Source of the DNA: a virus
Taxonomy: Duplodnaviria > Caudoviricetes
Virus record (IMG/VR): IMGVR_UViG_3300032828_000001
Span: 1-58,582 of that record
Length of the DNA: 58,582 nt
Strand: one strand, 5' to 3'
The position numbers were made by a program, and so were the translations under genes. Under the pieces are notes generated by a model. The model was not told where the DNA came from. It did no database searches and worked only from the letters and a program-made list of their open reading frames with translations. Shown piece after piece: positions 21,082 through 56,285 of the stretch. Position 1 is the first letter of the stretch; each line of letters opens with the position of its first letter.

Positions 21082-22104
21082 TCAGCGGCCCGTCATGGCG
21101 TCCACCAGCGCGATACGTCGCCCTATCCAGCGCATGACGGGCACCGCCATGCTATTCCCGATCGCGCGGTAGCGCGGCCCATCTTCGGCGCCCGGGATGG
21201 CGGTGTAGTCGTCGGGGAAGCCTTGCAGCCGCTCGCATTCACGAGGCGTCAACCGCCGCACCGCTGCGGCTGTGTGAACCGCGACGGACCCGCACCCGAG
21301 CGCGGAGCCGCACCCGAGCGCGGGTGACACCTCGCCCGAGATCGGGTCCTGTGTGGCGTGGAACGCGATCGGGCCGTCAAAGCTCCCTCCGCGCGTCACG
21401 AACGTTTCGGTTCCGGCATCCAAGCGTACCCCCCCCGTCAGGGTGCGTGCGACTACTTGGAGGTTGTCGGAGGCGTCGCCGCGCGGGCTACGCCCGCCGT
21501 GGTGTCCAAGGCTCGCTTCAGGGCAGGCGGCAATGTTAGTTCCCTCCGCTCGGCCCGGCGCAGGATCCCCCGACAAGCACGCGCGCTCAAATAGTACCGT
21601 AGCGGCACGTCGCCAATCTCCAAGATGTCCGACAACGAAGACGCGGCGCCGTCGCTGGGCCACTCCGAAATACTGAGCGTCAAGAACACGGTAGGCGAAC
21701 CCATACCCGCGTTCTGCCAAGCGCCCAAGGAAGGCTCCAAAGTCCCTGCCGCCGTTCGAGGACAACACGCCGGGGACGTTCTCCCATACCACCCAGCGGG
21801 CGCGTGTTCGGCCAGCAAGCGAAAGGAATTCAAGGGCCAGGTTACCGCGCGCGTCAGCCAATCCAGTTCTAGGTCCCGCGACCGAATACGATTGGCAGGG
21901 GGTTCCACCGACGAGAAGATCGATAGCTGGCCCGTCCGCTTTGATGGTTGTGAAATCGCCATGGTTGTGAACCTCGGGGTAGCGGTGCGCCAGCACGCGG
22001 GAAGGGAACTTGGCGATCTCGGCGAAGAACATGGGTTGCCACCCCAACGCATGCCATGCGACCGTCGCGGCTTCGATTCCGCTGCAAACGCTGCCGTACC
22101 GCAT
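21082..22104 (-). CDS. dcm: C5 cytosine DNA methyltransferase
   Basis: SVCSGIE, GGTPCQ, WENVPG, QRRRRVF, RRLTPRECERLQGFPD, GNSMAVPV. Confidence 0.95.
   Translation of the reverse strand: MRYGSVCSGIEAATVAWHALGWQPMFFAEIAKFPSRVLAHRYPEVHNHGDFTTIKADGPAIDLLVGGTPCQSYSVAGPRTGLADARGNLALEFLSLAGRTRARWVVWENVPGVLSSNGGRDFGAFLGRLAERGYGFAYRVLDAQYFGVAQRRRRVFVVGHLGDWRRAATVLFERACLSGDPAPGRAEGTNIAACPEASLGHHGGRSPRGDASDNLQVVARTLTGGVRLDAGTETFVTRGGSFDGPIAFHATQDPISGEVSPALGCGSALGCGSVAVHTAAAVRRLTPRECERLQGFPDDYTAIPGAEDGPRYRAIGNSMAVPVMRWIGRRIALVDAMTGR
21453..21962 (-). CDS. Overprinted alternative-frame protein resembling M.EcoHK31I beta subunit
   Basis: SSLSDILE..VPLRYYLSARACRGILRRAERR..LPPALKRAL within dcm in another frame; 169 aa. 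Confidence 0.7.
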   Translation of the reverse strand: MAISQPSKRTGQLSIFSSVEPPANRIRSRDLELDWLTRAVTWPLNSFRLLAEHAPAGWYGRTSPACCPRTAAGTLEPSLGAWQNAGMGSPTVFLTLSISEWPSDGAASSLSDILEIGDVPLRYYLSARACRGILRRAERRELTLPPALKRALDTTAGVARAATPPTTSK

Positions 22105-32546: not shown

Positions 32547-33326
32547 CTAACGACGTGCCCGGCGCGCTCTACCGGTGCGCCGTGCCGGTGAGCTCTTTAG
32601 CCCGCTCCCCTTCCCCGCACCGGTCCCGGACGGGGCGGGGGCGCGGCGCGGCTCGGCCCGCGTCTGTGCGCGCGGAGCGGGCACCCGGCGCGGCAAGGGG
32701 GGACGCGCGGGGATGCCGGGGGCGGGCACGGACGCCCTTCCCAATGGCGCGGCGGGCCTAGTCACCGCCTCGTGCGGGTCCAAAAACGGCGCGCCGCCCC
32801 CCGCGACCGGGGCGAGCGGGATCCGGCGCTGGGCAGGGGGCGCCTGAACCGCCGCGGCCGGCGGTTCGTCCCCGTCCACGTACTGCTCGAGCTCGTCGGG
32901 GACCTCGGGCGTATCCGAGGGGTCGCCGCTCGTCGGGAGCATGTGTTTCACTTTCCGTCCCCGCCCGGGCATCACGAGGGGCGTCGGGCGCGTCAACTCG
33001 GGCGAGCCCCGCACGCGGATCCCGCTGCCCGGGCTGCCGTCGCTCTTTTCGATGTCGACGCAATAGATCGTGACTTGATGTCCTATCCATTCCGAGGTGC
33101 GCCGGCCGAACATGGCGGCCACGCAGTGAACGGAGCCCTTGTTTAGGATCCACCCCTTTTCGAGCTCGGCCGACAAGATCATCGGCAGCGGGTCTTTTTG
33201 GCCCGCCATCGGCTCCATGCGAAAATCACTAATCGTGATTGTGTAGTCGGCCCCCCGGATGTCGTCGCCCTTCAGGTATTTCGATTCCAGCGGCGGAAAT
33301 AGCTCGTTGATGTCATAGTCGGTCAT
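32547..33326 (-). CDS. Putative ssDNA-binding/annealing protein
   Basis: SKYLK..DI, ILNK, FG..TSEWIG..VTI, GIRV; adjacent to exonuclease. Confidence 0.6.
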   Translation of the reverse strand: MTDYDINELFPPLESKYLKGDDIRGADYTITISDFRMEPMAGQKDPLPMILSAELEKGWILNKGSVHCVAAMFGRRTSEWIGHQVTIYCVDIEKSDGSPGSGIRVRGSPELTRPTPLVMPGRGRKVKHMLPTSGDPSDTPEVPDELEQYVDGDEPPAAAVQAPPAQRRIPLAPVAGGGAPFLDPHEAVTRPAAPLGRASVPAPGIPARPPLPRRVPAPRAQTRAEPRRAPAPSGTGAGKGSGLKSSPARRTGRARRARR

Positions 33327-33327
33327 G

Positions 33328-34218
33328 TCAGATCTCCACCCCGTCCACGATGATGCCCCATTTGTCAGCGCCCGCGCCCATCGCCCATTTCGGTAGGCTG
33401 AGCGTCGTTTCCGCTGCGCACCGGCCCGGCCAGGTGTTACTCGCCGTGCACTCAGCTACCTTGGCCAGGATGTCGGCCACCATGGCGTCGCCGGCATCGA
33501 GCGCCTCGGCATCGAGCGCGACCACGCCGACGTCATGGGGCGCGGTCACTTCGACGCAGATAAGCTTCGCCGGCAGATCGACCCCTAGTGCGGCCTTGAT
33601 GCCCCGCCGGTAGTACGCCATCTGCCCGTGATACCCGGCGCGCGCCACCGTGGCGGCGAGCAAGGACGGCTCGAGCGAGGGGACCCCTTTGAGGTCGTAC
33701 AACGCGGACTCGGGGTCAAGCCAGTCCATCTTGCACTTGCAGTGTATTCCGGTCGCCGCGTCCACCCACTGTATGACCTGCTCGGCCTTACCGCGCGCGA
33801 GCGTCTTGCCCGCAACCGGGTGCCCGCGCACCGCGTCGCGCACCGCCAGGCACTTCGTGTACTCGGCGACCTTCAGGATCGTCCTCCCCGCGTGCGCCGC
33901 CTCGAATGCTTCCCACGCTTTTCCGGCGCGGCGGTCGCCCTGCCACAGCACGTAGTCGAGGAGGAACCGATCGGGCTCGAAAACCGCGGTATGGTCCGCG
34001 CGGCCGAGCGCGCGCCCGGTAGTGTCGTCGGACGGATTGGCGAGCCTAAACGCATAGTGACGCGGGCTCGCGCGCATGGTCTTCGCGACCGTCCAGCGCA
34101 GCCCCGCCAGCGCGTCGTATGCCTCGTATCCCGCAGCGCTGGACGGACCCTTTGCGGCGGCCGGCGGCGCGGCTGCGGGTGGTACTGGTTTCACAACGGC
34201 CTTGCTGCGTGGCGCCAT
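33328..34218 (-). CDS. RecE-like (exonuclease VIII, DUF3799) PD-(D/E)XK nuclease
   Basis: GRADHTAVFEP, AEQVIQW, CKCKMDW, YDLK, YHGQMAYY. Confidence 0.85.
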   Translation of the reverse strand: MAPRSKAVVKPVPPAAAPPAAAKGPSSAAGYEAYDALAGLRWTVAKTMRASPRHYAFRLANPSDDTTGRALGRADHTAVFEPDRFLLDYVLWQGDRRAGKAWEAFEAAHAGRTILKVAEYTKCLAVRDAVRGHPVAGKTLARGKAEQVIQWVDAATGIHCKCKMDWLDPESALYDLKGVPSLEPSLLAATVARAGYHGQMAYYRRGIKAALGVDLPAKLICVEVTAPHDVGVVALDAEALDAGDAMVADILAKVAECTASNTWPGRCAAETTLSLPKWAMGAGADKWGIIVDGVEI

Positions 34219-34273
34219 GGTGTTGCCTCCCGGTGTTGGTTCGTGGCGTGACTGCCTGTGTACTTGATGCGTG

Positions 34274-34450
34274 CTATCTACGGTCCTCCCGCGCCGCGTC
34301 GTGGCGGTCTTCGTCGAGCGCGTCGAGGCACTCGCGGCAGATGGTCGGGCGCGGCGCCCATCGGGGCGCGCGCTCGGTTGCCAGGTGGTGCCCGCAGTAG
34401 GCGCAAATGCGAATGCCGGCGGGGTCCAGATCGGTGTTGGGGTCGCGCAT
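34274..34450 (-). CDS. 58-aa zinc-ribbon protein (not in ORF track)
   Basis: MRDPNTDLDPAGIRICAYCG...ICRECLDALDE; extended -10 TGcTAGCGT 6 nt before ATG. Confidence 0.6.
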   Translation of the reverse strand: MRDPNTDLDPAGIRICAYCGHHLATERAPRWAPRPTICRECLDALDEDRHDAAREDRR

Positions 34451-34455
34451 GCGGG

Positions 34456-34475
34456 CACGCTAGCATGCTAGCGTG
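34456..34475. promoter_or_regulatory. Perfect 20-bp palindrome, candidate operator in divergent promoter region
   Basis: CACGCTAGCATGCTAGCGTG overlapping leftward -10; further GCTAG/GCTAC copies 34517-34543. Confidence 0.65.
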
Positions 34476-34558
34476 GCTCGGGCAATAGGGGGGGGGCGCG
34501 CCCGCGCGCTTGTGCGTGCTACGCTAGCCAGGTACCTAGCTACTATAAGGAGGCAGCG

Positions 34559-34783
34559 ATGCGGCCACCGAAAAGAGTCGCGCCCGCGCGCCGGCCCGAA
34601 CGCGCGCGCCGCGGGCACTGGCAGATGCTCGTGCGCGTGACCGAGGCGCAGGCGCTCGCGCTACGTGAGGAGGCCACCCGGCGCGCCGAAGCCGCGGGCT
34701 CGATACGGCCGGACGTGAGCGCGCTCGTGCGCGAGGCGCTCGATGCGTGGATGGTCGCGGCGGCCAAAACCACGCGCAAATAG
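34559..34783 (+). CDS. Ribbon-helix-helix (CopG/Arc-like) regulator
   Basis: MLVRVTEAQ..AL...DVSALVREALDAW; AAGGAGG RBS. Confidence 0.8.
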   Translation: MRPPKRVAPARRPERARRGHWQMLVRVTEAQALALREEATRRAEAAGSIRPDVSALVREALDAWMVAAAKTTRK

Positions 34784-34812
34784 GCGGTGCGGCACGTACC
34801 CCGATCGTGGGA

Positions 34813-34853
34813 CACGCCGCACCGTTGACAGTGCGGCGTGCGCGCGGTAGGGT
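34813..34853 (+). promoter_or_regulatory. Sigma70 promoter with inverted-repeat operator around -35
   Basis: TTGACA(34825)-17nt-TAGGGT(34848); CACGCCGCAC(34813)/GTGCGGCGTG(34831). Confidence 0.8.
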
Positions 34854-34920
34854 ACGAGACATCAAGGGCGGCACGGAGCCACCCAGACGAAAAGGGGCAC
34901 GGAGCCTCGGGAGCAACACC

Positions 34921-35217
34921 ATGACGAACGCAACGCGGATCGCAGCCCCCCGCTACATCGTCCAGACCGCCACCGCGCATATGCCGACCTCGTGCTGGGG
35001 GCGCTACGGGCGCGTCGCGGTGCTCGAGGTCGAGGCCGGAATCACGGGTGTCGCGATGATCTCGCCGCGCGCCCGCGGGTGCGTGCGAGTGGTCCGGACC
35101 TGGGAAAAGCGGAACATCGGCACGACCAACCGCTGCGCCTACGCCCGCGCCCTCGCCGAGGCCAAGGCGCTCGCCGCGGAGCTGAACGCCTCCGCCACTC
35201 CCCCTCTCGCCGCCTGA
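34921..35217 (+). CDS. Early hypothetical protein
   Basis: GGGAG RBS, first gene after strong promoter. Confidence 0.7.
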   Translation: MTNATRIAAPRYIVQTATAHMPTSCWGRYGRVAVLEVEAGITGVAMISPRARGCVRVVRTWEKRNIGTTNRCAYARALAEAKALAAELNASATPPLAA

Positions 35218-35344
35218 GTCCCGGAGTCGGGCGCCCCATCGCGGGCGCCCGCCCGCGCGGCGTGCCGAGGCGACTCGGCGCACCGCGCGGGCCAAGGCCC
35301 GAACCGGCGCACGGAGCGCCGGACAACAACAGGGAGTGCACAGC

Positions 35345-36307
35345 ATGGACGCAACAGTCACGATCGAGGTTTACCCTGAGTATGCGGTGCCCAGCGAGGG
35401 GCGGGTGGAGTGGCTAGAGGCGCACGGGGCGCCCCCGAGCTCCGCAGAGGTAAGCGTCACGGCCCCACTCGCGCAGTGGGAGGCGGCCGGTATCGGCATC
35501 GCGGCGAACGGGGGATTGGAATGGTACGGCCGGGAGAAGGATGGTGTCGCGGATACGATCCGCGGCGCCATCACCCGGCGGATCCGCGCCACGGGCGAGG
35601 TCCCGGTCGAGTTCGATGCGACTGATGTGCTGGCGGGCCTGGCACGGGAGCGCGAGAAGGCGCTGCGCGCCGCCGCCATCGAGGCCGAACGGAAGGAGGC
35701 CGAGGAAAGGGCGGCCAAGGCACTCCACCGCCAGCGGGCCGAGGAGCAGCTCGCCGTGATGCGTGCCGGGGGCGATGATGCCATCGAGGCGTGGCGACGG
35801 CTAGATAGCCCGAAAATGTGGTGGAACAATTTGACCGACAGTGAAAAGGCGGAGGTGACCGCATGGGGAGAGGCGTACGAGGTGGCGAAGAAGGCCGCGC
35901 AGGAGCGCGCGAAGGACGAGATCCGCGCGTTCGCGGCGGATGGTCTCGCCGGTCCCGCGGCGCAGCGCGCGGCCAAGGAGGGATACGACGTGATAGGCGC
36001 CGTGCTCGATTCCGTTGCCGCGCAACAGCTCCCGGCGCCCCACGCCCGTAGCGTCCCCGACGACGACTACGAGTGGGAAGAGCGGCCCTCGCCGAATGAG
36101 GATGCGTTCGCGCTGCTCGATCGAATCGCGCAGGCGGTCGCGGCGGCAACGGTCCGGCCCGCCTGCGTGAACGTCGACTGCTCCCGGATCATGCGGATCA
36201 CTGAGCCCGAGGGAGAGGAGGAACACGGGCGGAAGCGCACCGGGGTCGTCGTGACCATCTCGAGCCCCATCACGCCCAATCGGTACCTCCTGTACTACGT
36301 CGAGTAA
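35345..36307 (+). CDS. Early hypothetical protein with central coiled coil
   Basis: GGGAG RBS, 320 aa, protein-like composition. Confidence 0.75.
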   Translation: MDATVTIEVYPEYAVPSEGRVEWLEAHGAPPSSAEVSVTAPLAQWEAAGIGIAANGGLEWYGREKDGVADTIRGAITRRIRATGEVPVEFDATDVLAGLAREREKALRAAAIEAERKEAEERAAKALHRQRAEEQLAVMRAGGDDAIEAWRRLDSPKMWWNNLTDSEKAEVTAWGEAYEVAKKAAQERAKDEIRAFAADGLAGPAAQRAAKEGYDVIGAVLDSVAAQQLPAPHARSVPDDDYEWEERPSPNEDAFALLDRIAQAVAAATVRPACVNVDCSRIMRITEPEGEEEHGRKRTGVVVTISSPITPNRYLLYYVE

Positions 36308-36316
36308 ACCACGTGT

Positions 36317-36345
36317 GAAGGGCGCCCCAAGATGGGGCGCCCTTC
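36317..36345. promoter_or_regulatory. Intergenic 13-bp hairpin
   Basis: GAAGGGCGCCCCA-aga-TGGGGCGCCCTTC, no U-tract. Confidence 0.55.
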
Positions 36346-36377
36346 CGGAGCCGCCGCATCGACCGAAAGGAATAGCC

Positions 36378-36593
36378 ATGATGCTCTACGACATATTTTA
36401 CCCATCGTGCAAGGGGTTCGACCGCGATGTGCCGATCGTCGGCCCCCCGTTGCACGACCTCGATTACGCCGTCAACACGAACTGGGACCGCCACCGTCTC
36501 TATGCCGATTACGCGGGCGGGAAACTCGTGTGGTGCGCCCCGGAAGCCCTCTCGCTCCGAGGTCAGCGTCGGCATGGGGTCGGCACCCCATGA
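36378..36593 (+). CDS. Small early protein
   Basis: AAAGGA RBS; ATGA overlap with next gene. Confidence 0.65.
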   Translation: MMLYDIFYPSCKGFDRDVPIVGPPLHDLDYAVNTNWDRHRLYADYAGGKLVWCAPEALSLRGQRRHGVGTP

Positions 36594-37633
36594 CACACAT
36601 ACCCACGGTGTACCTCACGCGAATGAAGGATATGATCCCAACGTGCTGGAAGGAGGTGGATCGCTTCCGGGCCATGCGCGGGAAAGGTCTCCCGAACTGG
36701 CCACCGTACTGTTTTCTGCCGCTGGCGGGCGCATACGCGATCCTCAGTCGGGGCGACTCCCTGTCGCCCGAAGAATGCGGGGCGATAGCGGCGTTCGGCG
36801 CGCTCGCTGCTTGGCGCGCGACGCAGGGGATCTATGAGATTCACCCGGCCATGCGCGCCGCCGTCGAGACAACGCCGATCGGGGCCATACCGGTCGAGGT
36901 GCTCCACCGCATGCCGGAATGGTGCATCTACATCCGTACTCCCGGTAACAGTTACCTGGGCGAAAAGGTTGAAGGGTTCTTCGCCTTTCTCGAGTACGAT
37001 GCGAACACCGGAAGTGAAGAGCTGCGCATCGTCATCGACTGCCCGCCCTGTCTGCTATCTGTCCTTTCGATCCATCTTGACCAGGGCGGACTGGAACTAG
37101 GTGTCGCAGCCGCCTATGCCGAGTGCCGGAAGCAGGCGCACAAGGCGGGCATGGATTTCGAGCGCGCGATCAGGATCATGGGCGTGGGCCCGAGCGAGTT
37201 GGCGGCGCTCCTCACACCCTACGTTAACCTCGTGCTTTACGTATCCGCCGAGAATGCCGAGATCTGCGATGCGAGTAACACCCGGACCCGCCCGGAGAAG
37301 CCGCGGCCAACGCGCACGAAAAAAGGGCTGCGCCTCTTTCCGCCCGATCACCCGACTACGTGGGACGTGGGAATGCGGTTAGGAGCTGCGCTGCAAGCCG
37401 CCGAGGTCGACGACGACAGCGAGCCGCGAGGCGGCACTCACGCGGGCCCGCGCCCGCATATCCGTCGCGCGCACTGGCACCATTATTGGTCCGGGCCGAA
37501 AAGCGCGCAGGAGATAAGTCTACGTTGGCTCGCCCCCATCGCCGTCAATGTCGACGACACCCACCCCCTCGTCCCCACGGTGCGGCCGATACCCGGTGAC
37601 ATCGAGGCACCGACACGGAAGGATCCCCCATGA
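36590..37633 (+). CDS. AcrVA2/FinQ-family protein
   Basis: AWRATQGIY, MPEWCIYI, NLVLYVSAEN.EI, WDVG.RLG, RPHIRRAHWHHYWSG, RWL.PI.VN match AcrVA2 motifs as recalled. Confidence 0.85.
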   Translation: MTHIPTVYLTRMKDMIPTCWKEVDRFRAMRGKGLPNWPPYCFLPLAGAYAILSRGDSLSPEECGAIAAFGALAAWRATQGIYEIHPAMRAAVETTPIGAIPVEVLHRMPEWCIYIRTPGNSYLGEKVEGFFAFLEYDANTGSEELRIVIDCPPCLLSVLSIHLDQGGLELGVAAAYAECRKQAHKAGMDFERAIRIMGVGPSELAALLTPYVNLVLYVSAENAEICDASNTRTRPEKPRPTRTKKGLRLFPPDHPTTWDVGMRLGAALQAAEVDDDSEPRGGTHAGPRPHIRRAHWHHYWSGPKSAQEISLRWLAPIAVNVDDTHPLVPTVRPIPGDIEAPTRKDPP

Positions 37634-37860
37634 CCACCTGCATATTCCTGGGCTGTGGCCTAGCCGCGCACGGCCACGGCCTCTGCCGCACGCACCTGTC
37701 CCAGCTCGCGCGCGGGCAGCCGCTCACCGCGCGCAAACCCAAGGCCGACGCCGCGCGGGTGGTCCTGTCACTGCGGGTATCGCGCGCGGCCAAGGAGGCC
37801 GCGCTCGACGACCCCGAACGGGCGCGCGCCGCGCTCGAGAAATTGGCGAGGGGCGCATGA
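37630..37860 (+). CDS. CCCH zinc finger plus RHH-like C-terminus (candidate Aca-type regulator)
   Basis: CIFLGC..GLCRTH then VVLSLRVS beta-strand and helices; ATGA coupled. Confidence 0.65.
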   Translation: MTTCIFLGCGLAAHGHGLCRTHLSQLARGQPLTARKPKADAARVVLSLRVSRAAKEAALDDPERARAALEKLARGA

Positions 37861-38402
37861 TTCGGCAAACACGAGTGCTCGCCTGCGGATGTACCGTCGC
37901 GCGCGAGCATCATACGCGCGGCGCGGTGAAGGCGGCGCGTGCGCGGGGAGTAACCGTGCGCGTCGCAACGTGGGCGCAGCTAGAGGAGGAGCATGCCGGC
38001 ACCTGCCGGAAGCTCCGCGCGATCTACGCTGCACGGGAGCGCGCCTCCGCGCGCGAGTCCCGTCAGCGCGAGGCCGATATCCGGCGCCGTATCGCGTCCG
38101 GAGAGCTCTGCCCGCTGTGTCAGGAGCCGGTCACGACCAGCGTGGCATGCATCACCGGGCAACACAAGTGCGTGTGGTCGCGCGCCGACGCGGCCCGCGA
38201 GCTAGCACTGCCCGCCACTTCACGCACGGTGCGATGGCTCGCCGATGGCGAGATCTCGCTTAGGGAAGCGCATCGCATCGCGGACGTCGTGTCGGATCGG
38301 CACGATGCGACCGATTATGATCGGCTGCTCCGCGCCGGGTACGATCGCGACGACGCACGCGAGATCATCCGCGAGCAGCTACCGCCGCCCAAAAGAGGGT
38401 AA
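37857..38402 (+). CDS. Hypothetical protein with Cys motifs
   Basis: LACGC, CPLC, RHDATDYDRLL..GYDRD.AR; ATGA coupled. Confidence 0.6.
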   Translation: MIRQTRVLACGCTVAREHHTRGAVKAARARGVTVRVATWAQLEEEHAGTCRKLRAIYAARERASARESRQREADIRRRIASGELCPLCQEPVTTSVACITGQHKCVWSRADAARELALPATSRTVRWLADGEISLREAHRIADVVSDRHDATDYDRLLRAGYDRDDAREIIREQLPPPKRG

Positions 38403-38458
38403 TGAGCCATGACCACCGCGAGGGGCGCATGATGCGCGTACGCACTTAGAGTCAACCG

Positions 38459-39127
38459 ATGGCACTCTTGGCGGACGAAGTGCGCCGGATGTACCGCGAG
38501 GCCGACGATGTGCTCGAGAAGCAGATCGTCCGCGACCAGCACGTGTCGTGCCGGAAGGGGTGCGCGCACTGTTGCCAGCTCCTCGCGCTCACCACCCTCC
38601 CCGAGGCGTATCTCCTCGCGCAGTGGGTGGCCCGGTCCCCCGATAGCGAGGTCTGGGTGTCGCGCCTGCTCGCCGTCGCGCGCGAGGTGGCGACCTGCAC
38701 CGACCGCGGCGACTGGTTCGATCGGCGCATCCCGTGCCTTTTTCTCGCGGCTGATAACACTTGTCGTGTGTATGACGATCGGCCCGGCTGTTGCCGCTGG
38801 CTCGCCGTCCGGACCCCACCCGAGCTGTGCGCCCCCGAGGCCCGGCGCGAAACGGTGGAGCGCTACGATACCCGCGGGCTCGAGCGCTACGCGATAGAGT
38901 GCGCGATCCGGTTCCACGACGAGCGCCCCGAGGCCGGCGCCGTCGGCGTGGGCCTCATTCCACTAGCTGTGTTATGGGCCCTGCATATCGGCCTGCGCGG
39001 CAAGGCGCGGCGCCGCCTCGAAAAGAAGATGTTTGGGCTCCCGACGCTCGCCGAATGGACCGCGCGCTATCGCGACGAGCCCGTGAATCGGACCCCGGCC
39101 TTCCGGGTCCTGAACGATGGCGCGTAG
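38459..39127 (+). CDS. YkgJ/UPF0153 (CxxCxxCC) cysteine-cluster protein
   Basis: SCRKGCAHCC, CLFL, CRVYDDRPGCCR. Confidence 0.85.
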   Translation: MALLADEVRRMYREADDVLEKQIVRDQHVSCRKGCAHCCQLLALTTLPEAYLLAQWVARSPDSEVWVSRLLAVAREVATCTDRGDWFDRRIPCLFLAADNTCRVYDDRPGCCRWLAVRTPPELCAPEARRETVERYDTRGLERYAIECAIRFHDERPEAGAVGVGLIPLAVLWALHIGLRGKARRRLEKKMFGLPTLAEWTARYRDEPVNRTPAFRVLNDGA

Positions 39128-39254
39128 CGCTTCGCCTGCATCTCACGCGGATCACGCGGATTCTGCCGGTTCTGCCGGCACCGTCCGGGGCGTGCCGGGC
39201 GTCACCCCTTAGGCCCGTCGCCCTTTTGTGCTATGACCGCGCGCGGGAGGGTCG

Positions 39255-39485
39255 ATGCCGATCGAGTCGATCGAATCGCGGCGATATGACGAGCTGTGCA
39301 GTTACGTGCGGGAACACGCGCGCGCGCACGGGGCGGTGATCCTCATCCTAGCGGGCCCCCACGGCAACGCCTTCCGGGCGCAGGCGCCCCTCGAACTCCA
39401 AGCGCGGATCCCGCGCCTCTTGCGGTGGGTCGCCGACCAAGTAGAGCGGGAGCTCAAAAACCCCGCCGGGCAGGCGAACGCGTGA
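39255..39485 (+). CDS. Small conserved phage protein
   Basis: YDELCSYVRE..A.GAVILI; GGAGG RBS. Confidence 0.65.
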   Translation: MPIESIESRRYDELCSYVREHARAHGAVILILAGPHGNAFRAQAPLELQARIPRLLRWVADQVERELKNPAGQANA

Positions 39486-39495
39486 GGCCGCGCGC

Positions 39496-39702
39496 GTGAT
39501 CATCGCCTACGATCTCGCGCACACGCACCGTGCGTGCATTGCGACCCACAACGCGATCACACTGAAACCGTGCCCGCACGGGTGCACGACGCAATGCCCG
39601 GAAGTGGTCGAGCAGTGCGTGTTCGTGACCACCTCGCTCGAGACGCTGCGAGCCGAGCTCGACCGGGACGAACCCGCGGCGGGGAGCCCCGGCGGGGACT
39701 AG
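39496..39702 (+). CDS. Hypothetical protein
   Basis: GAGG RBS, Cys-containing 68 aa. Confidence 0.45.
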   Translation: MIIAYDLAHTHRACIATHNAITLKPCPHGCTTQCPEVVEQCVFVTTSLETLRAELDRDEPAAGSPGGD

Positions 39703-39960
39703 GGGGCGACCCCGAGTCACGGCCGTTATCTCACGGTCACGACGGCGCCGGCCGGCGCATGCCGGGGTGAGCCACCGGCCCCCCCGATCCCGGCGGCCGG
39801 CGCCGTCGCGTTCCCGCGTGCGGATTCCGCCTGCCAGCGCCAAGCCGCGTCTCACCGCGCCATGTGCCGGCATGTCGCCATGTTTCGCGATTGGTCGCTG
39901 TCTGTCGCGTCCGGGCGCGGTCTGCGTGTTCGCGTCGCCTAGTGCCTAGCCGTGTCGCGC

Positions 39961-41490
39961 CTAGCCGCTCTGTGCGCCCTTGGGCGGAAGAAAGGATACG
40001 TTCGAGCTCGTGGGCTCCACGAGCCGGTAGACGTATTCCGTCCAGCGCTCGAGCGCGTCCCGCCGCTGGTCAAAATAGTCATCGTGGCTGTAGTACCCCT
40101 CCATCCCGCCCTCGACGTGACCGATACACCGCTCGGCGAAAAAGGGGAGAACGCCGCATTTCTTCGGGGCGAGCGTACGGAACGTGTGGCGAAGATCGTG
40201 CACCGTGACGTGCCCACCGGGGAGATCGAGCAAGGGCGGCACGCGGATCCTCTGCCCTTTCTGCCGGCGTTCGCCGGCCTGCATACGGCTGAGCGCCCGC
40301 ATAAGTGCCTTGTCGTTCAGCCGCCCCGATTCGGAGTCGCTGCTTGCCATCACAAACCGTGAATCCCCCGCCAGGCTTTTCAGCTCACGAAACATCGACA
40401 GCACTTGCGGTACGAGCGGTATCCTGCGGTCCTCCGCGTGGGCGATCTGTTTGGGCTGTAGCTTCTGATTTTCGATGGGGACGATCCAGATGGCCCCCTC
40501 GAGATCCAGCTCCTTCCATTCGGCCCTGAGTAATTCCCCCGTCCGATCCGGCACCAACAATAGGATGCGCAGGCCGAGCTGCACCGAACGCGACATCCCT
40601 TCAAGCGGAACGAGCGCGCGTCCACGCTTCATCTGCCGGTAATGGCCATAGCAGAGCCCTTTTGCTCTCGCGGCGCGCCCGCATGGGCTGAATGCGCACG
40701 ATGCCATTCCGGTCTCGATGACCTCATCACCCGTTCGCTTTTCTACCGCGCGCCAGAAAAGCGGGATCTCATGCTCCGAAAGGTAACGCCTGCGCCGGTT
40801 CTTCACGCAACCGAGGGCGTCCTTATCGAGTGCATCCATGGGGTTCACGGAGAGATCCTCCCCGTAGCTCCGGAGCCACCGAAAAAACTGGCGCAGGTGG
40901 CTAAAGACCATTCCGGCCTGCGTCGGGGAACCGCGCCGCACCACGCCAAGCACGATGTCTCGGCAGTCCTGCCGAGCTTGCGCCGTGTTCGCGGCCCAGG
41001 TGGCCAGGGGCTTCTTTCCGAGCGCCGGGAGAATGTCCGCATCGAGCGTCCGCCGAACCTCATGCGGAACCGACCGCTTCGGGACAATCCGCAACCGATA
41101 GAATTCTTCGGCGAGTTCGCCGATGGTCTTTCCGCCGCCGCCCATCGTGCGCGACTTGGAGCGGCGGCCCATCTTGGTCTCGAACTCGATGAGCTTCCCG
41201 GTGCTATGGGCTGCCTTGGCGCGTTCGAGAAGGGCGCGCGCGTCGTTCACCGTCAGTTGTTCATCCGTCTTGCCGCTCGGATGCCCCCATGGGCCCAGGA
41301 CCAATGATCGGTTTTCGCGGCTCCCATCTGCGTCCACCACCTGATAGTACCAGCGAAACATCTTGCTGCCGGTCGGGTACACGCGCAGGCAAAGGCCGCG
41401 GTCAAACCGATCGTACCGCCCGTCCGGCAAGTCTCGTATCCAAGCGTCCGTGAATCCGAACGGCGGCGTGCTAGTGTATCGGGGATCCAT
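39961..41490 (-). CDS. int: P4-type tyrosine integrase with arm-binding domain and inserted zinc finger
   Basis: AGGAGG before ATG 41490; GLCLRV..TGSK.F arm domain; R(TGE), HDLRHT, CIGH, YYSHDDY catalytic motifs. Confidence 0.95.
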   Translation of the reverse strand: MDPRYTSTPPFGFTDAWIRDLPDGRYDRFDRGLCLRVYPTGSKMFRWYYQVVDADGSRENRSLVLGPWGHPSGKTDEQLTVNDARALLERAKAAHSTGKLIEFETKMGRRSKSRTMGGGGKTIGELAEEFYRLRIVPKRSVPHEVRRTLDADILPALGKKPLATWAANTAQARQDCRDIVLGVVRRGSPTQAGMVFSHLRQFFRWLRSYGEDLSVNPMDALDKDALGCVKNRRRRYLSEHEIPLFWRAVEKRTGDEVIETGMASCAFSPCGRAARAKGLCYGHYRQMKRGRALVPLEGMSRSVQLGLRILLLVPDRTGELLRAEWKELDLEGAIWIVPIENQKLQPKQIAHAEDRRIPLVPQVLSMFRELKSLAGDSRFVMASSDSESGRLNDKALMRALSRMQAGERRQKGQRIRVPPLLDLPGGHVTVHDLRHTFRTLAPKKCGVLPFFAERCIGHVEGGMEGYYSHDDYFDQRRDALERWTEYVYRLVEPTSSNVSFLPPKGAQSG

Positions 41491-41859
41491 CGAACCTCCT
41501 TGACAGGTTCCGGTGGTGAGGGCTCCGCGGCGGCTGCGAACCGCTTTGGGGCCCGTTTTTTTGTGACAGGAGCGGGGTACGCCCCCACTGTTCGGACTAC
41601 GCCATGCGCCCGGGTCCGAGCAGCGCCGAAGTGCCTCCTGGGGTGAACACTGCGGCCCCTCTTGATGTGACAGGCAGAAAACCACATCGCCAGGCCCATG
41701 TGAAGCATCATTTTTGTTCACCCCGGGGTGAACACTGGGGAAACCTTCACAAATAGCGTTGATCCGCGTCAAACCGCGACACGGAAAAACGGTCCCAAGT
41801 ATAAGCGGTTACGCGCTCTGGCGCGTTTTGTCGCGGTACGCGTTGTGCGCGCAATATTC

Positions 41860-41904
<45 letters not shown>

Positions 41905-41907
41905 CAA

Positions 41908-41958
41908 AAGGCCGCGATGTTGTTCGGGAAACTCCGACACATCGCGGCCTTCTTTTTT
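41908..41958 (+). terminator. Replacement terminator for the reconstituted tRNA
   Basis: 13-bp stem AAGGCCGCGATGT/ACATCGCGGCCTT then CTTTTTT. Confidence 0.85.
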
Positions 41959-42045
41959 ACGCAGAGAGCGCGGGGGGCGGTTTGGGGTGAACAACGGGGT
42001 GAACATTGGGGGCGATCACGACAGAGCGCGACCAACCGCGACGCA

Positions 42046-46449: not shown

Positions 46450-46556
46450 GACGGGCCAATCCGGCACCGGGCGCCTATCCGCCTGGCACCTCACCCGCGC
46501 CCCGCTATCTACCCCCGGACATGCACTACACAAGCGGGGCCCCTATCGTAGGGGGC

Positions 46557-47369
46557 ATGGCCAAGGCGATGGGGTCGGCGACGATATGGCTCGGCCGGGT
46601 CGCGATCCCGGTCCGGGTCTATCCGGCGATCCTCGACCCCCCGCGGGTCGCGTTTCATTACCTGCACTGGGCGTGCAATGGGCGCGTTCGGCAAGAGTAC
46701 CATTGCCCGCGCTGCGAGGAGAGGACGGCGCCGGCCGCGCTCCCACGCGATGCCCTGCACGCGGGCGTCGAGGTCGGCAAAGACCAATACGTCACGTTCA
46801 GTAAAGAGGAGCGGCAAGCGCTCACCGAGGAGCCGGATCCGGCGATCGAGATAGGCGAGTGCGTGCCGGCCGAGTCGATCGATCCCATCCATTGGGCGCG
46901 CCCGCACTACCTCGGGCCGGAACCGGGGCACGGGGACGGCTATGCACTGTTAGTCGACGCGCTCCATTTGTCCGGCCGCGTCGGCCTCGCGCACTGGCGC
47001 ACCCGCGGCGCGGATCTGTTCGTCGCGGTGCGCGAATCCGGGCGCCGGCTCGTCGTGCAGGAGCTCTTGCGCGCGGAAGAGGTGCGGCCCATTGCCGAGA
47101 TAGAGGCACCGCCCGCGCCTGCGGCCGGGCTCGCGAAACTCGGCCTCGCCCTCGTCACCCGGTACGCGGGCACGTTCGATCCGGCCGCATATCCCGACCG
47201 TGTATATGCACGCACCGTCGAAGCGGTCGAGGCGAAGAGGGCGGGGAAAGAGATCATCGCCGTTCCGGCGCCGGGGCGCGAGGCGCCGCTCCCGCTCGCG
47301 GCGGCGCTCAAAGCAAGCATCGAGGCGGGGAAGCCGCGGGGGGCGAAGACCAAGCGGGGGCGCACGTGA
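46557..47369 (+). CDS. ku: Ku DNA end-binding protein (no LigD in genome)
   Basis: I.LGRVAIPVRVYPA, FHYLH..C.GRV, G.EVGKDQYV, IDPIHW..PHYLGP, YALL..AL, FDP..YPD. Confidence 0.92.
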   Translation: MAKAMGSATIWLGRVAIPVRVYPAILDPPRVAFHYLHWACNGRVRQEYHCPRCEERTAPAALPRDALHAGVEVGKDQYVTFSKEERQALTEEPDPAIEIGECVPAESIDPIHWARPHYLGPEPGHGDGYALLVDALHLSGRVGLAHWRTRGADLFVAVRESGRRLVVQELLRAEEVRPIAEIEAPPAPAAGLAKLGLALVTRYAGTFDPAAYPDRVYARTVEAVEAKRAGKEIIAVPAPGREAPLPLAAALKASIEAGKPRGAKTKRGRT

Positions 47370-54317: not shown

Positions 54318-54878
54318 TCACACGGTGACCACCGACGCCCACGTCCCTTCATCGAACCCGAGCCCGCCACCGCCCGCGAAGCTGAACGCCTGCGCTCCGG
54401 GGGTGGCGAGCGTCTCGAGATACCCGTTCGTCGTCGCCTCCGTAGCGGCCGACAAAAGCTCCGACAGGATCCCGGCGTCGACGGCCGCGCCGCCCACCTT
54501 GAGCGTGAACGCCTTGGGATAGTAGGGAATGAGCGTCAGCGTCGCGCTGCTCGGGACCACACACCGCATGATGGCAAGGATCTGCGGCCCGGTACCAGAC
54601 GAGCGGTTTAGGAGCACCCGCGCGGCGATCCAAAGCCGGTAGGTCGCGTCATCCATCCCCTCGCGCGCCTGGCCGACGAGCGAGCCGAGGAGGTCGAGCT
54701 GTTCACCCACCGCGGTGGGCAGGGTTATCCCGTAGTCTGCCCAAAGTGTATTCTCGAGCGCCTGATTCTCGGCCGTGGCGAGCGCGACGAGCGCGTTCAC
54801 GGTGACCGACTCGCGGTACTGCTCCACTAACCGCGAACACGCGATGGCTTGATGGTCGGTGATCTGGGTAAGCGCCAC
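54318..54878 (-). CDS. Baseplate wedge protein (DUF2612/P2 gpI-like)
   Basis: RLVEQYR, TAVGEQLDLLGSLVG..R..MDD.TYR, NRSSGT. Confidence 0.85.
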   Translation of the reverse strand: MALTQITDHQAIACSRLVEQYRESVTVNALVALATAENQALENTLWADYGITLPTAVGEQLDLLGSLVGQAREGMDDATYRLWIAARVLLNRSSGTGPQILAIMRCVVPSSATLTLIPYYPKAFTLKVGGAAVDAGILSELLSAATEATTNGYLETLATPGAQAFSFAGGGGLGFDEGTWASVVTV

Positions 54879-54887
54879 GGTGAACCC

Positions 54888-56285
54888 TCACGGTGTGAAC
54901 GGCGCGACGGTGACGGTGATGTTGGTCGACTGGAACTCCGCGATCTCGGTGGTGGCGATGGTGATATTGGCCTCCGACGAGGGCACCGGGCTCGCCGTTG
55001 TCCCGACGTAGCAGTGGGTGATGTCGACGACGCCCGGGACCGACAGGATCGCGGGGAAGAGCGCGCGGGTGACGACGTCATTGCCCGCGGAAAGGTTGGC
55101 CTGCGCCCATTCGATGATGGCGGTTTGTACTTCCACCGTCCCATCGGCGGGCCACGCCGCGTTGTCGATCGCGAGGAGCACGCTCACATAGATGGGCTGC
55201 GACGTCGGCCGCGAAAAGTAGACGCTTTGTACGACCCCTTCGCTGTCGGTCACCTGCCCTTGGGTGGTCCCGTATGTCTGGGTTCCGGCCGCGACCGCGT
55301 TCCAGGCCGCGGTCAGGATGTCCGCATCGGCGCCGCCGGTGACGAGCGCTTCGACCGAGTACGGGGGCATGCCGAGCGCGTTCGGGGCGTTCGTCATGTT
55401 CCGGAACACCGTACAGGCGGTGACGCCCGAAACCGCCATGATGCGGGCCCGGATTGCATCCGGCGTTGCGCTTCCGGCCACCTCGAGCTCGACGACGCGG
55501 CGCACCCTCAGTGACGCATCGGTGTCGGCGTCGAGTCCCGGCACCGCGTCGAACGGGTTCACAACCGCGGACCAACCGGCGACCGGGGTCACGATCGTGT
55601 TGATGGTCCCCGCGAGCGCCTCGATGGGCCCCGTATCGGCCGCCTGAAAGGTAGCGACCGCGCACGCGCTGCCAGGCGCGACCCAGTTCCAAGTCACGCC
55701 GCCGTCCACGATGCCGGCCCCGGTTCCGGTCGGCCCGCCCGAGGCCGCGCTCGGCCCGGTTTCTGCCGCGCAGACGTACAGGTTCGTGACCGCGGCGCCC
55801 GCTACCGTCGCGGTGTTCGCGGTGACCGCACCCACCGCGAAGCTCGTCGACCCGGTCCAGGCCGTGGCCGCCGCGATGGTCGCCGCCGCGCTACTTGTGA
55901 AGGCCGCGCCGTTCTGCCCGGCGGAAACGCTCGAGCCCGCCGGGATGACGGTGGCCACCGTGCCGAGTAGGACGCAGGTGACGGTGGAGGCCGTCGCTTC
56001 CTGCGCGAACGTCCCGGTGATGGCGGCGAGCGCCTGCAAGCCCGCCCCGGTCGCCTGGTCCGGGTCGCGCGAGGCATAGACCTCCTGCGCCATGTCCCAG
56101 ATCTCGGACTCGCGGTCGGCGAGGATGCCGCAGAGCTGCCCCCACGGGCCGGCGGGGTCGGCTACTTGCTGGTTTTGCCCGAATGTCGCCTGGACGGCCG
56201 CCTGTATTTCCGACAGGCACTCGGAAAGCGGCTTCACCACGAAGCCGGCCGGCGTTACACCGTAGGTGACCGAACCGTTCGACAC
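54888..56285 (-). CDS. Baseplate J-like protein with inserted CBM5/12-like module
   Basis: YGVTPAGF, DPDQATG..L, TGPI.A, I.TPV.GW..V.N, ..LR.RR, PPYSVEA.V.GG, FSRP. Confidence 0.92.
   Translation of the reverse strand: MSNGSVTYGVTPAGFVVKPLSECLSEIQAAVQATFGQNQQVADPAGPWGQLCGILADRESEIWDMAQEVYASRDPDQATGAGLQALAAITGTFAQEATASTVTCVLLGTVATVIPAGSSVSAGQNGAAFTSSAAATIAAATAWTGSTSFAVGAVTANTATVAGAAVTNLYVCAAETGPSAASGGPTGTGAGIVDGGVTWNWVAPGSACAVATFQAADTGPIEALAGTINTIVTPVAGWSAVVNPFDAVPGLDADTDASLRVRRVVELEVAGSATPDAIRARIMAVSGVTACTVFRNMTNAPNALGMPPYSVEALVTGGADADILTAAWNAVAAGTQTYGTTQGQVTDSEGVVQSVYFSRPTSQPIYVSVLLAIDNAAWPADGTVEVQTAIIEWAQANLSAGNDVVTRALFPAILSVPGVVDITHCYVGTTASPVPSSEANITIATTEIAEFQSTNITVTVAPFTP

Follow-up and report, generated by a model that had tools for sequence, protein, structure and literature searches.

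How does a gene of the AcrVA2/FinQ family come to be carried by a high-GC temperate phage, and what would its product act on? We address this question for the open reading frame (ORF) at 36590-37633 of IMG/VR virus record IMGVR_UViG_3300032828_000001, whose full length of 58,582 bp (100% complete according to CheckV) is the window analysed here. A preliminary description of this DNA had called the ORF a homologue of the anti-CRISPR AcrVA2 and of FinQ, placed in an early operon resembling those of anti-CRISPR (acr) and anti-CRISPR-associated (aca) genes. We find that the ORF is almost certainly an intact, diverged member of the AcrVA2/FinQ family; the evidence on what it might silence and how it might be controlled is taken up step by step below.

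36590-37633, plus strand: AcrVA2/FinQ-family gene, 347 amino acids, assigned by sequence, fold and motif matches

We begin with the sequence comparison. A phmmer search of the PDB matches the product of this ORF to an AcrVA2 chain (7ci1_A of PDB 7CI1) at E = 2.6e-18, aligning residues 24-118 and 231-320 of the query with residues 21-122 and 228-317 of the chain; the N-terminal stretch scores 18 bits and the C-terminal stretch 49 bits, and the identity to AcrVA2 is 19-21%. The protein also matches phrog_6160, a family to which no function is assigned (E = 2.2e-51, residues 16-322), and a gene on a Serratia plasmid that is annotated 'protein finQ' (AP028508.1; 26.1% identity, E = 1e-14, query residues 78-334). 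A large protein collection holds 739 homologues at E <= 1e-5, the closest at 63% identity, and 120 of these were listed; our counts of residues and of conservation among close relatives rest on these 120, all of which bear the precomputed Pfam label PF26125.

The residues on which AcrVA2 depends can be followed through this alignment. According to the available text of the AcrVA2 paper, the substitutions W79A and D89A weaken its activity (D89A with moderate loss), H286A, R288A and H291A abolish it, and H286 and R288 are kept in divergent orthologues including FinQ (10.1101/2022.11.29.518452). In the alignment to 7ci1_A, the AcrVA2 residues W79, D89, H286, R288 and H291 correspond to W75, H85, H290, R292 and H295 of the phage protein. 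An AcrVA2 mutant equivalent to H290A forms a stable complex with its target. W75, H290, R292 and H295 are invariant in 120/120 listed homologues, and the last three, which align with the HIRRGH stretch of AcrVA2, are also invariant in a broad set of 47 sequences. The predicted structure agrees with this picture: an AlphaFold (AF2) model built on the 120-homologue alignment (predicted local distance difference test, pLDDT, 89.7; predicted template-modelling score, pTM, 0.86) is matched by Foldseek in the PDB to 7ci1_A at E = 9.1e-17, with template-modelling (TM) scores of 0.63/0.73 over 343 columns. The only matches at E <= 0.001 are AcrVA2 chains (7ci1_A, 7ci2_A and 7ci1_B), the next match having E = 0.12.

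Two observations speak against so simple an assignment. The protein has no match in the local Pfam and NCBIfam collections (nor in PADLOC), and the residue equivalent to D89 of AcrVA2 is a histidine, H85. At this position 101/120 listed homologues have D and 19/120 have H, and because the latter include the seven closest relatives we read the change as a trait of the lineage and not as decay. Since the sequence match, the fold, the key motif and the plasmid gene annotated finQ all agree, we regard membership in the AcrVA2/FinQ family as secure, and the homology proposed in the preliminary description is upheld by comparison with both relatives.

The family is widely spread on mobile elements. 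By tblastn, 557 plasmid records match the phage protein, 515 of them conjugative; the closest plasmid matches (about 40% identity) lie on plasmids of environmental Proteobacteria and encode proteins without a name. A further 58 phage records match, including phages of Moraxella, Leptospira, Erwinia and Shewanella. The protein's own subfamily numbers hundreds of sequences from environmental metagenomes (40-63% identity) and has a well conserved N-terminal part; in three further collections the nearest homologue has 42% identity, as against 57-63% for the closest homologues in the protein collection. Conservation along the protein depends on how far one looks. In the broad set (46 non-redundant distant homologues together with the phage protein) mean conservation is 0.68 at residues 286-320 and 0.25 at residues 1-60; the first 60 residues reach 0.62 when the 120 close relatives are compared. 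This pattern fits a two-part design, in which a constant effector module would be joined to a lineage-specific recognition part, and the conserved N-terminus suggests that the close subfamily may share one target. The tree in the AcrVA2 paper, which by the available text holds about 1,800 orthologues (10.1101/2022.11.29.518452), may already include this subfamily.

What would such a protein do? AcrVA2 binds the nascent N-terminal polypeptide of Cas12a and brings about a translation-dependent loss of cas12a mRNA, as stated in the accessible part of its description (10.1101/2022.11.29.518452). A 2026 editorial, as far as its text is available, adds that the C-terminal part of AcrVA2 associates with ribosomes and that the protein recruits a cellular enzyme and does not itself cut RNA, and a 2026 review, in its accessible part, presents AcrVA2 as the first documented case in prokaryotes in which an inhibitor recognises a nascent polypeptide and thereby sets off decay of the mRNA that encodes it. 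By homology, the variable N-terminal and middle part of the phage protein would bind a specific nascent polypeptide, the conserved C-terminal module (H290-x-R292-x-x-H295) would work at the ribosome, and a host enzyme would be triggered to destroy the mRNA of the bound nascent protein. We consider an AcrVA2-like mechanism of this kind rather probable, and the same degree of favour goes to the combined statement that the protein both belongs to the family and acts in this way. Rather than Cas12a, the target would more likely be a protein that belongs to a host defence system or to a rival mobile element; granted the mechanism, a target other than Cas12a is quite likely.

The most literal alternative is that the phage carries a working anti-Cas12a anti-CRISPR, so that its host would have a type V-A system whose cas12a mRNA is silenced as it is by AcrVA2. 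The shared family, fold and key C-terminal residues fit this idea, and so does the finding, in the available text of the AcrVA2 paper, that AcrVA2 acts on Cas12a orthologues of 35% identity through a short conserved N-terminal peptide (10.1101/2022.11.29.518452). Several points argue that the target is probably not Cas12a: the low identity to AcrVA2, the 18-bit match in the N-terminal stretch, the statement in the accessible part of the same paper that Cas12a is typically absent where AcrVA2 homologues are found and that these may act on other targets (Marino et al.; 10.1101/2022.11.29.518452), and our own finding of Cas12a (model TIGR04330) in 0/10 genomes that hold family members, genomes whose completeness is not known. 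As a control for the model, TIGR04330 detected Cas12a in 5/251 genomes of a control family. Cas12a keeps a small chance of being the target, and we hold the anti-Cas12a explanation to be very unlikely.

A different possibility is that the protein inhibits no host immunity at all and is a weapon between mobile elements in the manner of FinQ. Expressed from the prophage, it would silence a gene of an incoming plasmid or phage, and exclusion of the newcomer would favour the lysogen. The family member FinQ inhibits transfer of the F plasmid and lowers the mRNA of its transfer genes, according to the available text of the paper in which it is named as an AcrVA2 homologue (10.1101/2022.11.29.518452), and the many conjugative plasmids among the matches above point the same way. 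So does the place of the gene: a temperate phage carries it in an accessory array, next to the integrase. The gene also belongs to a cassette of four overlapping or abutting genes (36378-38402), three of which have a GC content at third codon positions (GC3) of 0.76-0.78, as against 0.83-0.90 in the remaining ORFs of the plus strand, and this fits later acquisition. Set against this is the fact that the only mechanism so far worked out in the family is that of an anti-defence protein, and the promoter-like site and dyad upstream of the array, described below, would suit early lytic expression equally well. We judge a FinQ-like role to be rather unlikely, though better placed than the anti-Cas12a one; an AcrVA2-like silencer with a target other than Cas12a is the reading we carry forward.

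Comparison with the known members makes the position of the protein clearer. AcrVA2 itself (from Moraxella bovoculi prophages; structures 7CI1 and 7CI2) shares with it the family, the full-length fold and the W and HxRxxH residues, and both are encoded on temperate phage. The phage protein differs in its low identity, its poorly similar N-terminal part and the histidine that replaces the D89 equivalent; no AcrVA1-like partner is evident, and the phage is a high-GC, environmental one. FinQ, known from the fertility inhibition of conjugative plasmids, is homologous, whereas the gene here is phage-borne and its closest plasmid relatives are those of environmental Proteobacteria and not the enterobacterial FinQ. 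A precedent for a family gene in a phage is ORF43 of Shewanella phage vB_SbaS_Y11, in the accessible part of whose description ORF47 is annotated as a putative DNA-binding protein gene and a type I-E CRISPR-Cas locus is cited from another Shewanella genome. By the same text vB_SbaS_Y11 has 46.9% GC and no integrase, unlike the temperate phage considered here.

We now turn to the genome that carries the gene. The GC content of the window is about 67% overall and 62-73% across 2-kb windows, in keeping with the preliminary label of a very high-GC phage. Genes of tail sheath, tape measure, portal, head protease, major head protein and head morphogenesis occupy the minus strand at 497-25045, and the stretch 54318-56285 holds a gene with a Baseplate_J domain and another with DUF2612. 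From these structural genes and the tyrosine integrase below we take the phage to be temperate and myovirus-like.

39961-41475, minus strand: tyrosine integrase (Arm-DNA-bind_3, E = 1.7e-7; Phage_integrase, E = 8.8e-7), convergent with the plus-strand gene array

The AcrVA2-family gene sits in an accessory gene array between the recombination and replication module and this integrase. The phage has no close known relative, the nearest known phage by portal protein being at 32.6% identity; the only relative to which the sheath protein led (43% identity) is without an AcrVA2 homologue. Searching for clues to the host, we found no tRNA gene or tRNA fragment close to the integrase, and the tail sheath protein was not found (E <= 1e-20) in 401 sampled genomes of the phylum to which genome G004 belongs. 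The stretch 34500-39700 is nearly complete in four public wetland metagenome runs (word share 0.99-1.00), and no RNA dataset is among the sequencing runs that hold it. Single contigs from two runs span 33000-41000 with 0 differences, but the DNA of the window may itself derive from these runs; the assembly joints listed for these contigs have sides of 21-23 letters and were treated as noise.

Three further observations concern the genome as a whole. A phage-encoded Ku homologue lies at 46521-47369 on the plus strand (PF02735, E = 8e-27), with metagenomic proteins at 48-50% identity as its nearest relatives. Amid the head genes, at 21082-22104 on the minus strand, there is a DNA methyltransferase gene (phrog_116, E = 4e-88) that may guard the phage against restriction. 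The gap that separates the last gene of the array from the integrase stop codon holds an 18-nt inverted repeat (39740-39808) with arms that are 94% complementary and 33 nt apart; it may serve as a bidirectional terminator or belong to attP.

The array itself consists of ten plus-strand ORFs from 34559 to 39702, most with a recognisable ribosome-binding site. All ten look coding, since their GC3 of 0.76-0.90 exceeds the GC content at the first and second codon positions (GC1 and GC2). Beside the AcrVA2-family gene, they are the following, of which the first and the fifth are discussed further below as putative regulators.

34559-34783, plus strand: ribbon-helix-helix (RHH)-like gene, 74 amino acids, GC3 0.85, with an AAGGAGG ribosome-binding site 7 nt upstream
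34921-35217, plus strand: ORF of 98 amino acids, GC3 0.90, with no match in Pfam, PHROGs, NCBIfam or PADLOC
35345-36307, plus strand: ORF of 320 amino acids, with no match in Pfam, PHROGs, NCBIfam or PADLOC and no usable match in the Atlas
36378-36593, plus strand: ORF of 71 amino acids, GC3 0.78, its stop overlapping the start of the AcrVA2-family gene (ATGA), with no match in Pfam, PHROGs, NCBIfam or PADLOC
37630-37860, plus strand: zinc-finger gene, 76 amino acids, its start overlapping the stop of the AcrVA2-family gene, a candidate DNA-binding regulator
37857-38402, plus strand: DUF2293-domain gene, 181 amino acids (PF10056, E = 5.5e-8, above cut-off), its start overlapping the stop of the zinc-finger gene
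38459-39127, plus strand: gene with a CxxCxxCC putative metal-chelating domain, 222 amino acids (PF03692, E = 1.7e-6, above cut-off)
39255-39485, plus strand: ORF of 76 amino acids, GC3 0.84, with no family
39496-39702, plus strand: Cys-rich ORF of 68 amino acids, GC3 0.87, with no family, the last ORF of the array

ATGA start/stop overlaps fall at 36590/36593, 37630/37633 and 37857/37860, as follows from the ORF coordinates and as expected from the preliminary account of small coupled ORFs. Other searches on these genes gave little: PADLOC returned 0 matches for all ten, a literature search on DUF2293 returned no paper, and neither ORF 35345-36307 nor the DUF3799 gene of the leftward operon has relatives in viral contigs. 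The four genes of the AcrVA2 cassette may have been acquired separately, given the lower GC3 of three of them and the hairpin at their upstream boundary (36317-36345), and the 2-kb window 36001-38000 has 66% GC as against 71% and 69% on its flanks; composition thus hints that the cassette is the more recent acquisition.

Does the family gene travel with any of these neighbours? By tblastn, none of the nine neighbouring ORFs is found in 164 loci that hold a family member. We reduced these loci to 59 non-redundant ones and pooled their 101 immediate same-strand neighbours with the nine window ORFs; the resulting 110 proteins comprise 102 singletons and 4 pairs, and no pair includes a window ORF. 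Because no neighbour recurs in the 164 loci and 102/110 neighbours are singletons, the AcrVA2-family gene appears to move alone, and it would be a self-contained module, unaccompanied by a conserved partner. This also bears on the products of the ORFs that begin at 34921, 35345, 36378, 37857 and 38459, which had been put forward as anti-defence candidates by adjacency only: with none of them recurring in those loci and no match in PADLOC or to any informative family (DUF2293 and the CxxCxxCC domain have no assigned role), we find that proposal unsupported.

We next ask how the array might be controlled. The preliminary description placed a near-consensus sigma70 promoter, with its -35 hexamer inside a perfect 10-bp inverted repeat, upstream of the array, an RHH gene upstream and a finger-RHH gene directly downstream of the AcrVA2-family gene. 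The DNA elements that bear on this are given below.

34456-34475, no strand: palindrome CACGCTAGCATGCTAGCGTG, perfect over 20 bp, in the intergenic stretch from which the leftward DUF3799 operon and the RHH-like gene diverge
34795-34856, no strand: long imperfect dyad built around the perfect 10-bp repeat and covering both promoter hexamers, a candidate operator or RNA hairpin
34825-34853, plus strand: promoter-like site TTGACA-17 nt-TAGGGT, with the -35 hexamer (34825-34830) at the dyad centre and the -10 hexamer (34848-34853) in the outer arm
36317-36345, plus strand: hairpin (GC-rich stem of 13 bp, 3-nt loop, no T-tract) that separates ORF 35345-36307 from the AcrVA2 cassette

The inverted repeat is present as described, with arms CACGCCGCAC (34813-34822) and GTGCGGCGTG (34831-34840) on either side of TTGACA; lengthened to 13 nt, it still holds at 92%. 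Inverted repeats that are perfect over 10 bp or more give 9 hits at 7 sites in the window, mostly intergenic, compared with 2.3 +/- 1.7 in 30 simulations. Of the promoter, the TTGACA hexamer and the 17-nt spacer hold up, and the pattern TTGACA-N16-18-TANNNT has 1 match in the window where 0.08 are expected (at least one match in 8/100 shuffles). The label 'near-consensus' is generous, because the -10 hexamer agrees with the consensus at 3/6 positions and a promoter scan of 33000-42000 called 0 sites.

Candidate proteins to bind the dyad are encoded close by. The 74-aa protein has a basic N-terminal arm followed by a strand-helix-helix pattern, and in the Atlas it is placed with a CopG-like RHH cluster (score 0.93, 170 shared features, TM 0.67), with MetJ, RHH_1, RHH_4 and NikA-like rows appearing too and TM scores of 0.62-0.71 to RHH-type clusters. 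No sequence match was found for it in Pfam, NCBIfam or the PDB. These structural likenesses are leads, not proof, for an RHH regulator, and the upstream RHH gene of the preliminary description is in this sense a candidate, suggested by the Atlas and not by sequence.

The 76-aa protein is a zinc-finger protein, and to that extent the 'finger' half of its earlier label is confirmed. Its N-terminal CCCH finger (C4, C9, C19 and H22, invariant among relatives) lies in a part that matches phrog_19978 (E = 3.8e-7); the module has 338 representatives at E <= 1e-3, with up to 14 copies in one 886-aa protein, and 5/14 relatives of the 76-aa protein match Zf_WRKY19 in Pfam. The RHH half finds less to stand on. 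An AF2 model (pLDDT 88) shows the C-terminal half as an extended segment followed by two helices, which is compatible with an RHH whose strand would form only in the dimer, but the protein matches no helix-turn-helix (HTH) or RHH family, the model has no Foldseek match at E <= 0.001, and its best VIA-align match is an A20 zinc finger (Z 2.6). A homodimer prediction, with a score of 0.20 against a mark of 0.42, favoured neither side. We also considered whether this protein could be a DNA-binding anti-CRISPR of the CasPR kind and rejected the idea; CasPR, in the accessible part of its description, combines CapR and AP2 domains, and no such domain was found here. As a separate observation, the integrase carries an insertion of the same CCCH module at its residues 257-304 (41% identity over 51 residues to the 76-aa protein, E = 2e-7).

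Expression of the array would then start from the TTGACA-17-TAGGGT site, with the dyad bound by one of these two small putative DNA-binding proteins. We offer this model as speculative and rather doubtful. Beside the shortfall in the -10 hexamer and the silent promoter scan, it has against it that the promoter-like site lies 1.7 kb upstream of the AcrVA2 cassette and that a strong hairpin intervenes between the site and the AcrVA2-family gene: as RNA the element at 36317-36345 folds at -30.1 kcal/mol (z -3.7, 0/200 shuffles as stable), and its role could be that of a terminator, of a processing site or of a border to the cassette. The neighbours of other family members weigh in the same direction. 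Among 99 neighbours of at least 40 aa from the 59 loci, HTH families are the commonest in Pfam (HTH_3 5/99, HTH_26 4/99, HTH_31 4/99), and no RHH family is among the 25 commonest. A DNA-binding gene adjoins the family gene in a minority of loci.

The dyad can also be read as no operator at all, but as an RNA stem-loop that ends or stabilises the RHH transcript, the TTGACA being incidental and the array not under Aca control. The dyad begins 12 nt past the stop codon of the RHH-like gene and as RNA has a folding energy of -45.7 kcal/mol (z -3.9), with 0/200 shuffles as stable; the similar T-less hairpin after ORF 35345-36307 suggests that such elements may punctuate genes, and the poor -10 hexamer and the absence of called promoters fit as well. 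The promoter pattern, on the other hand, occurs once in the window against its low expectation, correctly oriented and 68 nt ahead of the next gene (34921-35217), and two small putative DNA-binding proteins are encoded nearby. Operator and stem-loop roles are moreover compatible with each other, and the dyad could be an operator, a terminator or stabiliser of the upstream gene, or more than one of these. We consider a purely stem-loop role somewhat unlikely, and on a par with the operator model that it would replace.

This comparison also decides how far the likeness to acr-aca operons can be taken. It consists in a dyad-bearing promoter-like site upstream of a same-strand array with an Acr-family gene, and in the small gene that follows it immediately, whose product is a putative DNA-binding protein. 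The array differs in its length (ten genes over about 4.9 kb) and in the hairpin inside it, and Acas are described, in the accessible literature, as HTH proteins, whereas no HTH match is found here and the downstream gene is without a confirmed RHH fold. With the dyad doubling as an RNA hairpin, the hairpin at 36317-36345 inside the array and the finger protein's fold as it stands, an acr-aca-like early operon is not established.

Other elements of the intergenic region stand apart from this question. The palindrome CACGCTAGCATGCTAGCGTG is accompanied by a third ACGCTAGC half-site at 34521-34528, and the 3 copies of ACGCTAGC that the window holds all fall within this region; the palindrome is a candidate operator of the switch region, probably the main one. 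At the head of the leftward operon, a 58-aa ORF (34274-34450, minus strand; two CxxC pairs, GC3 0.86) directly precedes the DUF3799 PDDEXK-like gene at 33328-34203. A direct repeat, GGCACGGAGCC, occurs twice with 26-nt spacing at 34870-34906, in the presumed 5' leader of ORF 34921-35217.

What does this locus mean for the family? A tentative picture, which we put forward as possible and not as likely, is that the subfamily may silence one conserved non-Cas12a target during translation, and that the phage gene might be under a zinc-finger regulator of a type not described for Aca proteins in the accessible literature; the conserved target, if there is one, might for instance be a defence protein widespread among hosts or a protein of mobile elements. 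That AcrVA2 homologues may have a target other than Cas12a is an idea already published by Marino et al., and the question of such homologues on mobile elements without Cas12a has likewise been raised in the available text of that work (10.1101/2022.11.29.518452). The phage adds a well-supported, intact AcrVA2/FinQ member from a high-GC temperate wetland phage and no new system, and the finding alone alters nothing in principle. It makes three small additions, namely the C-terminal conservation in the family, the N-terminus common to the close subfamily, and a gene that travels without a conserved partner, and these could guide the choice of homologues in a hunt for targets.

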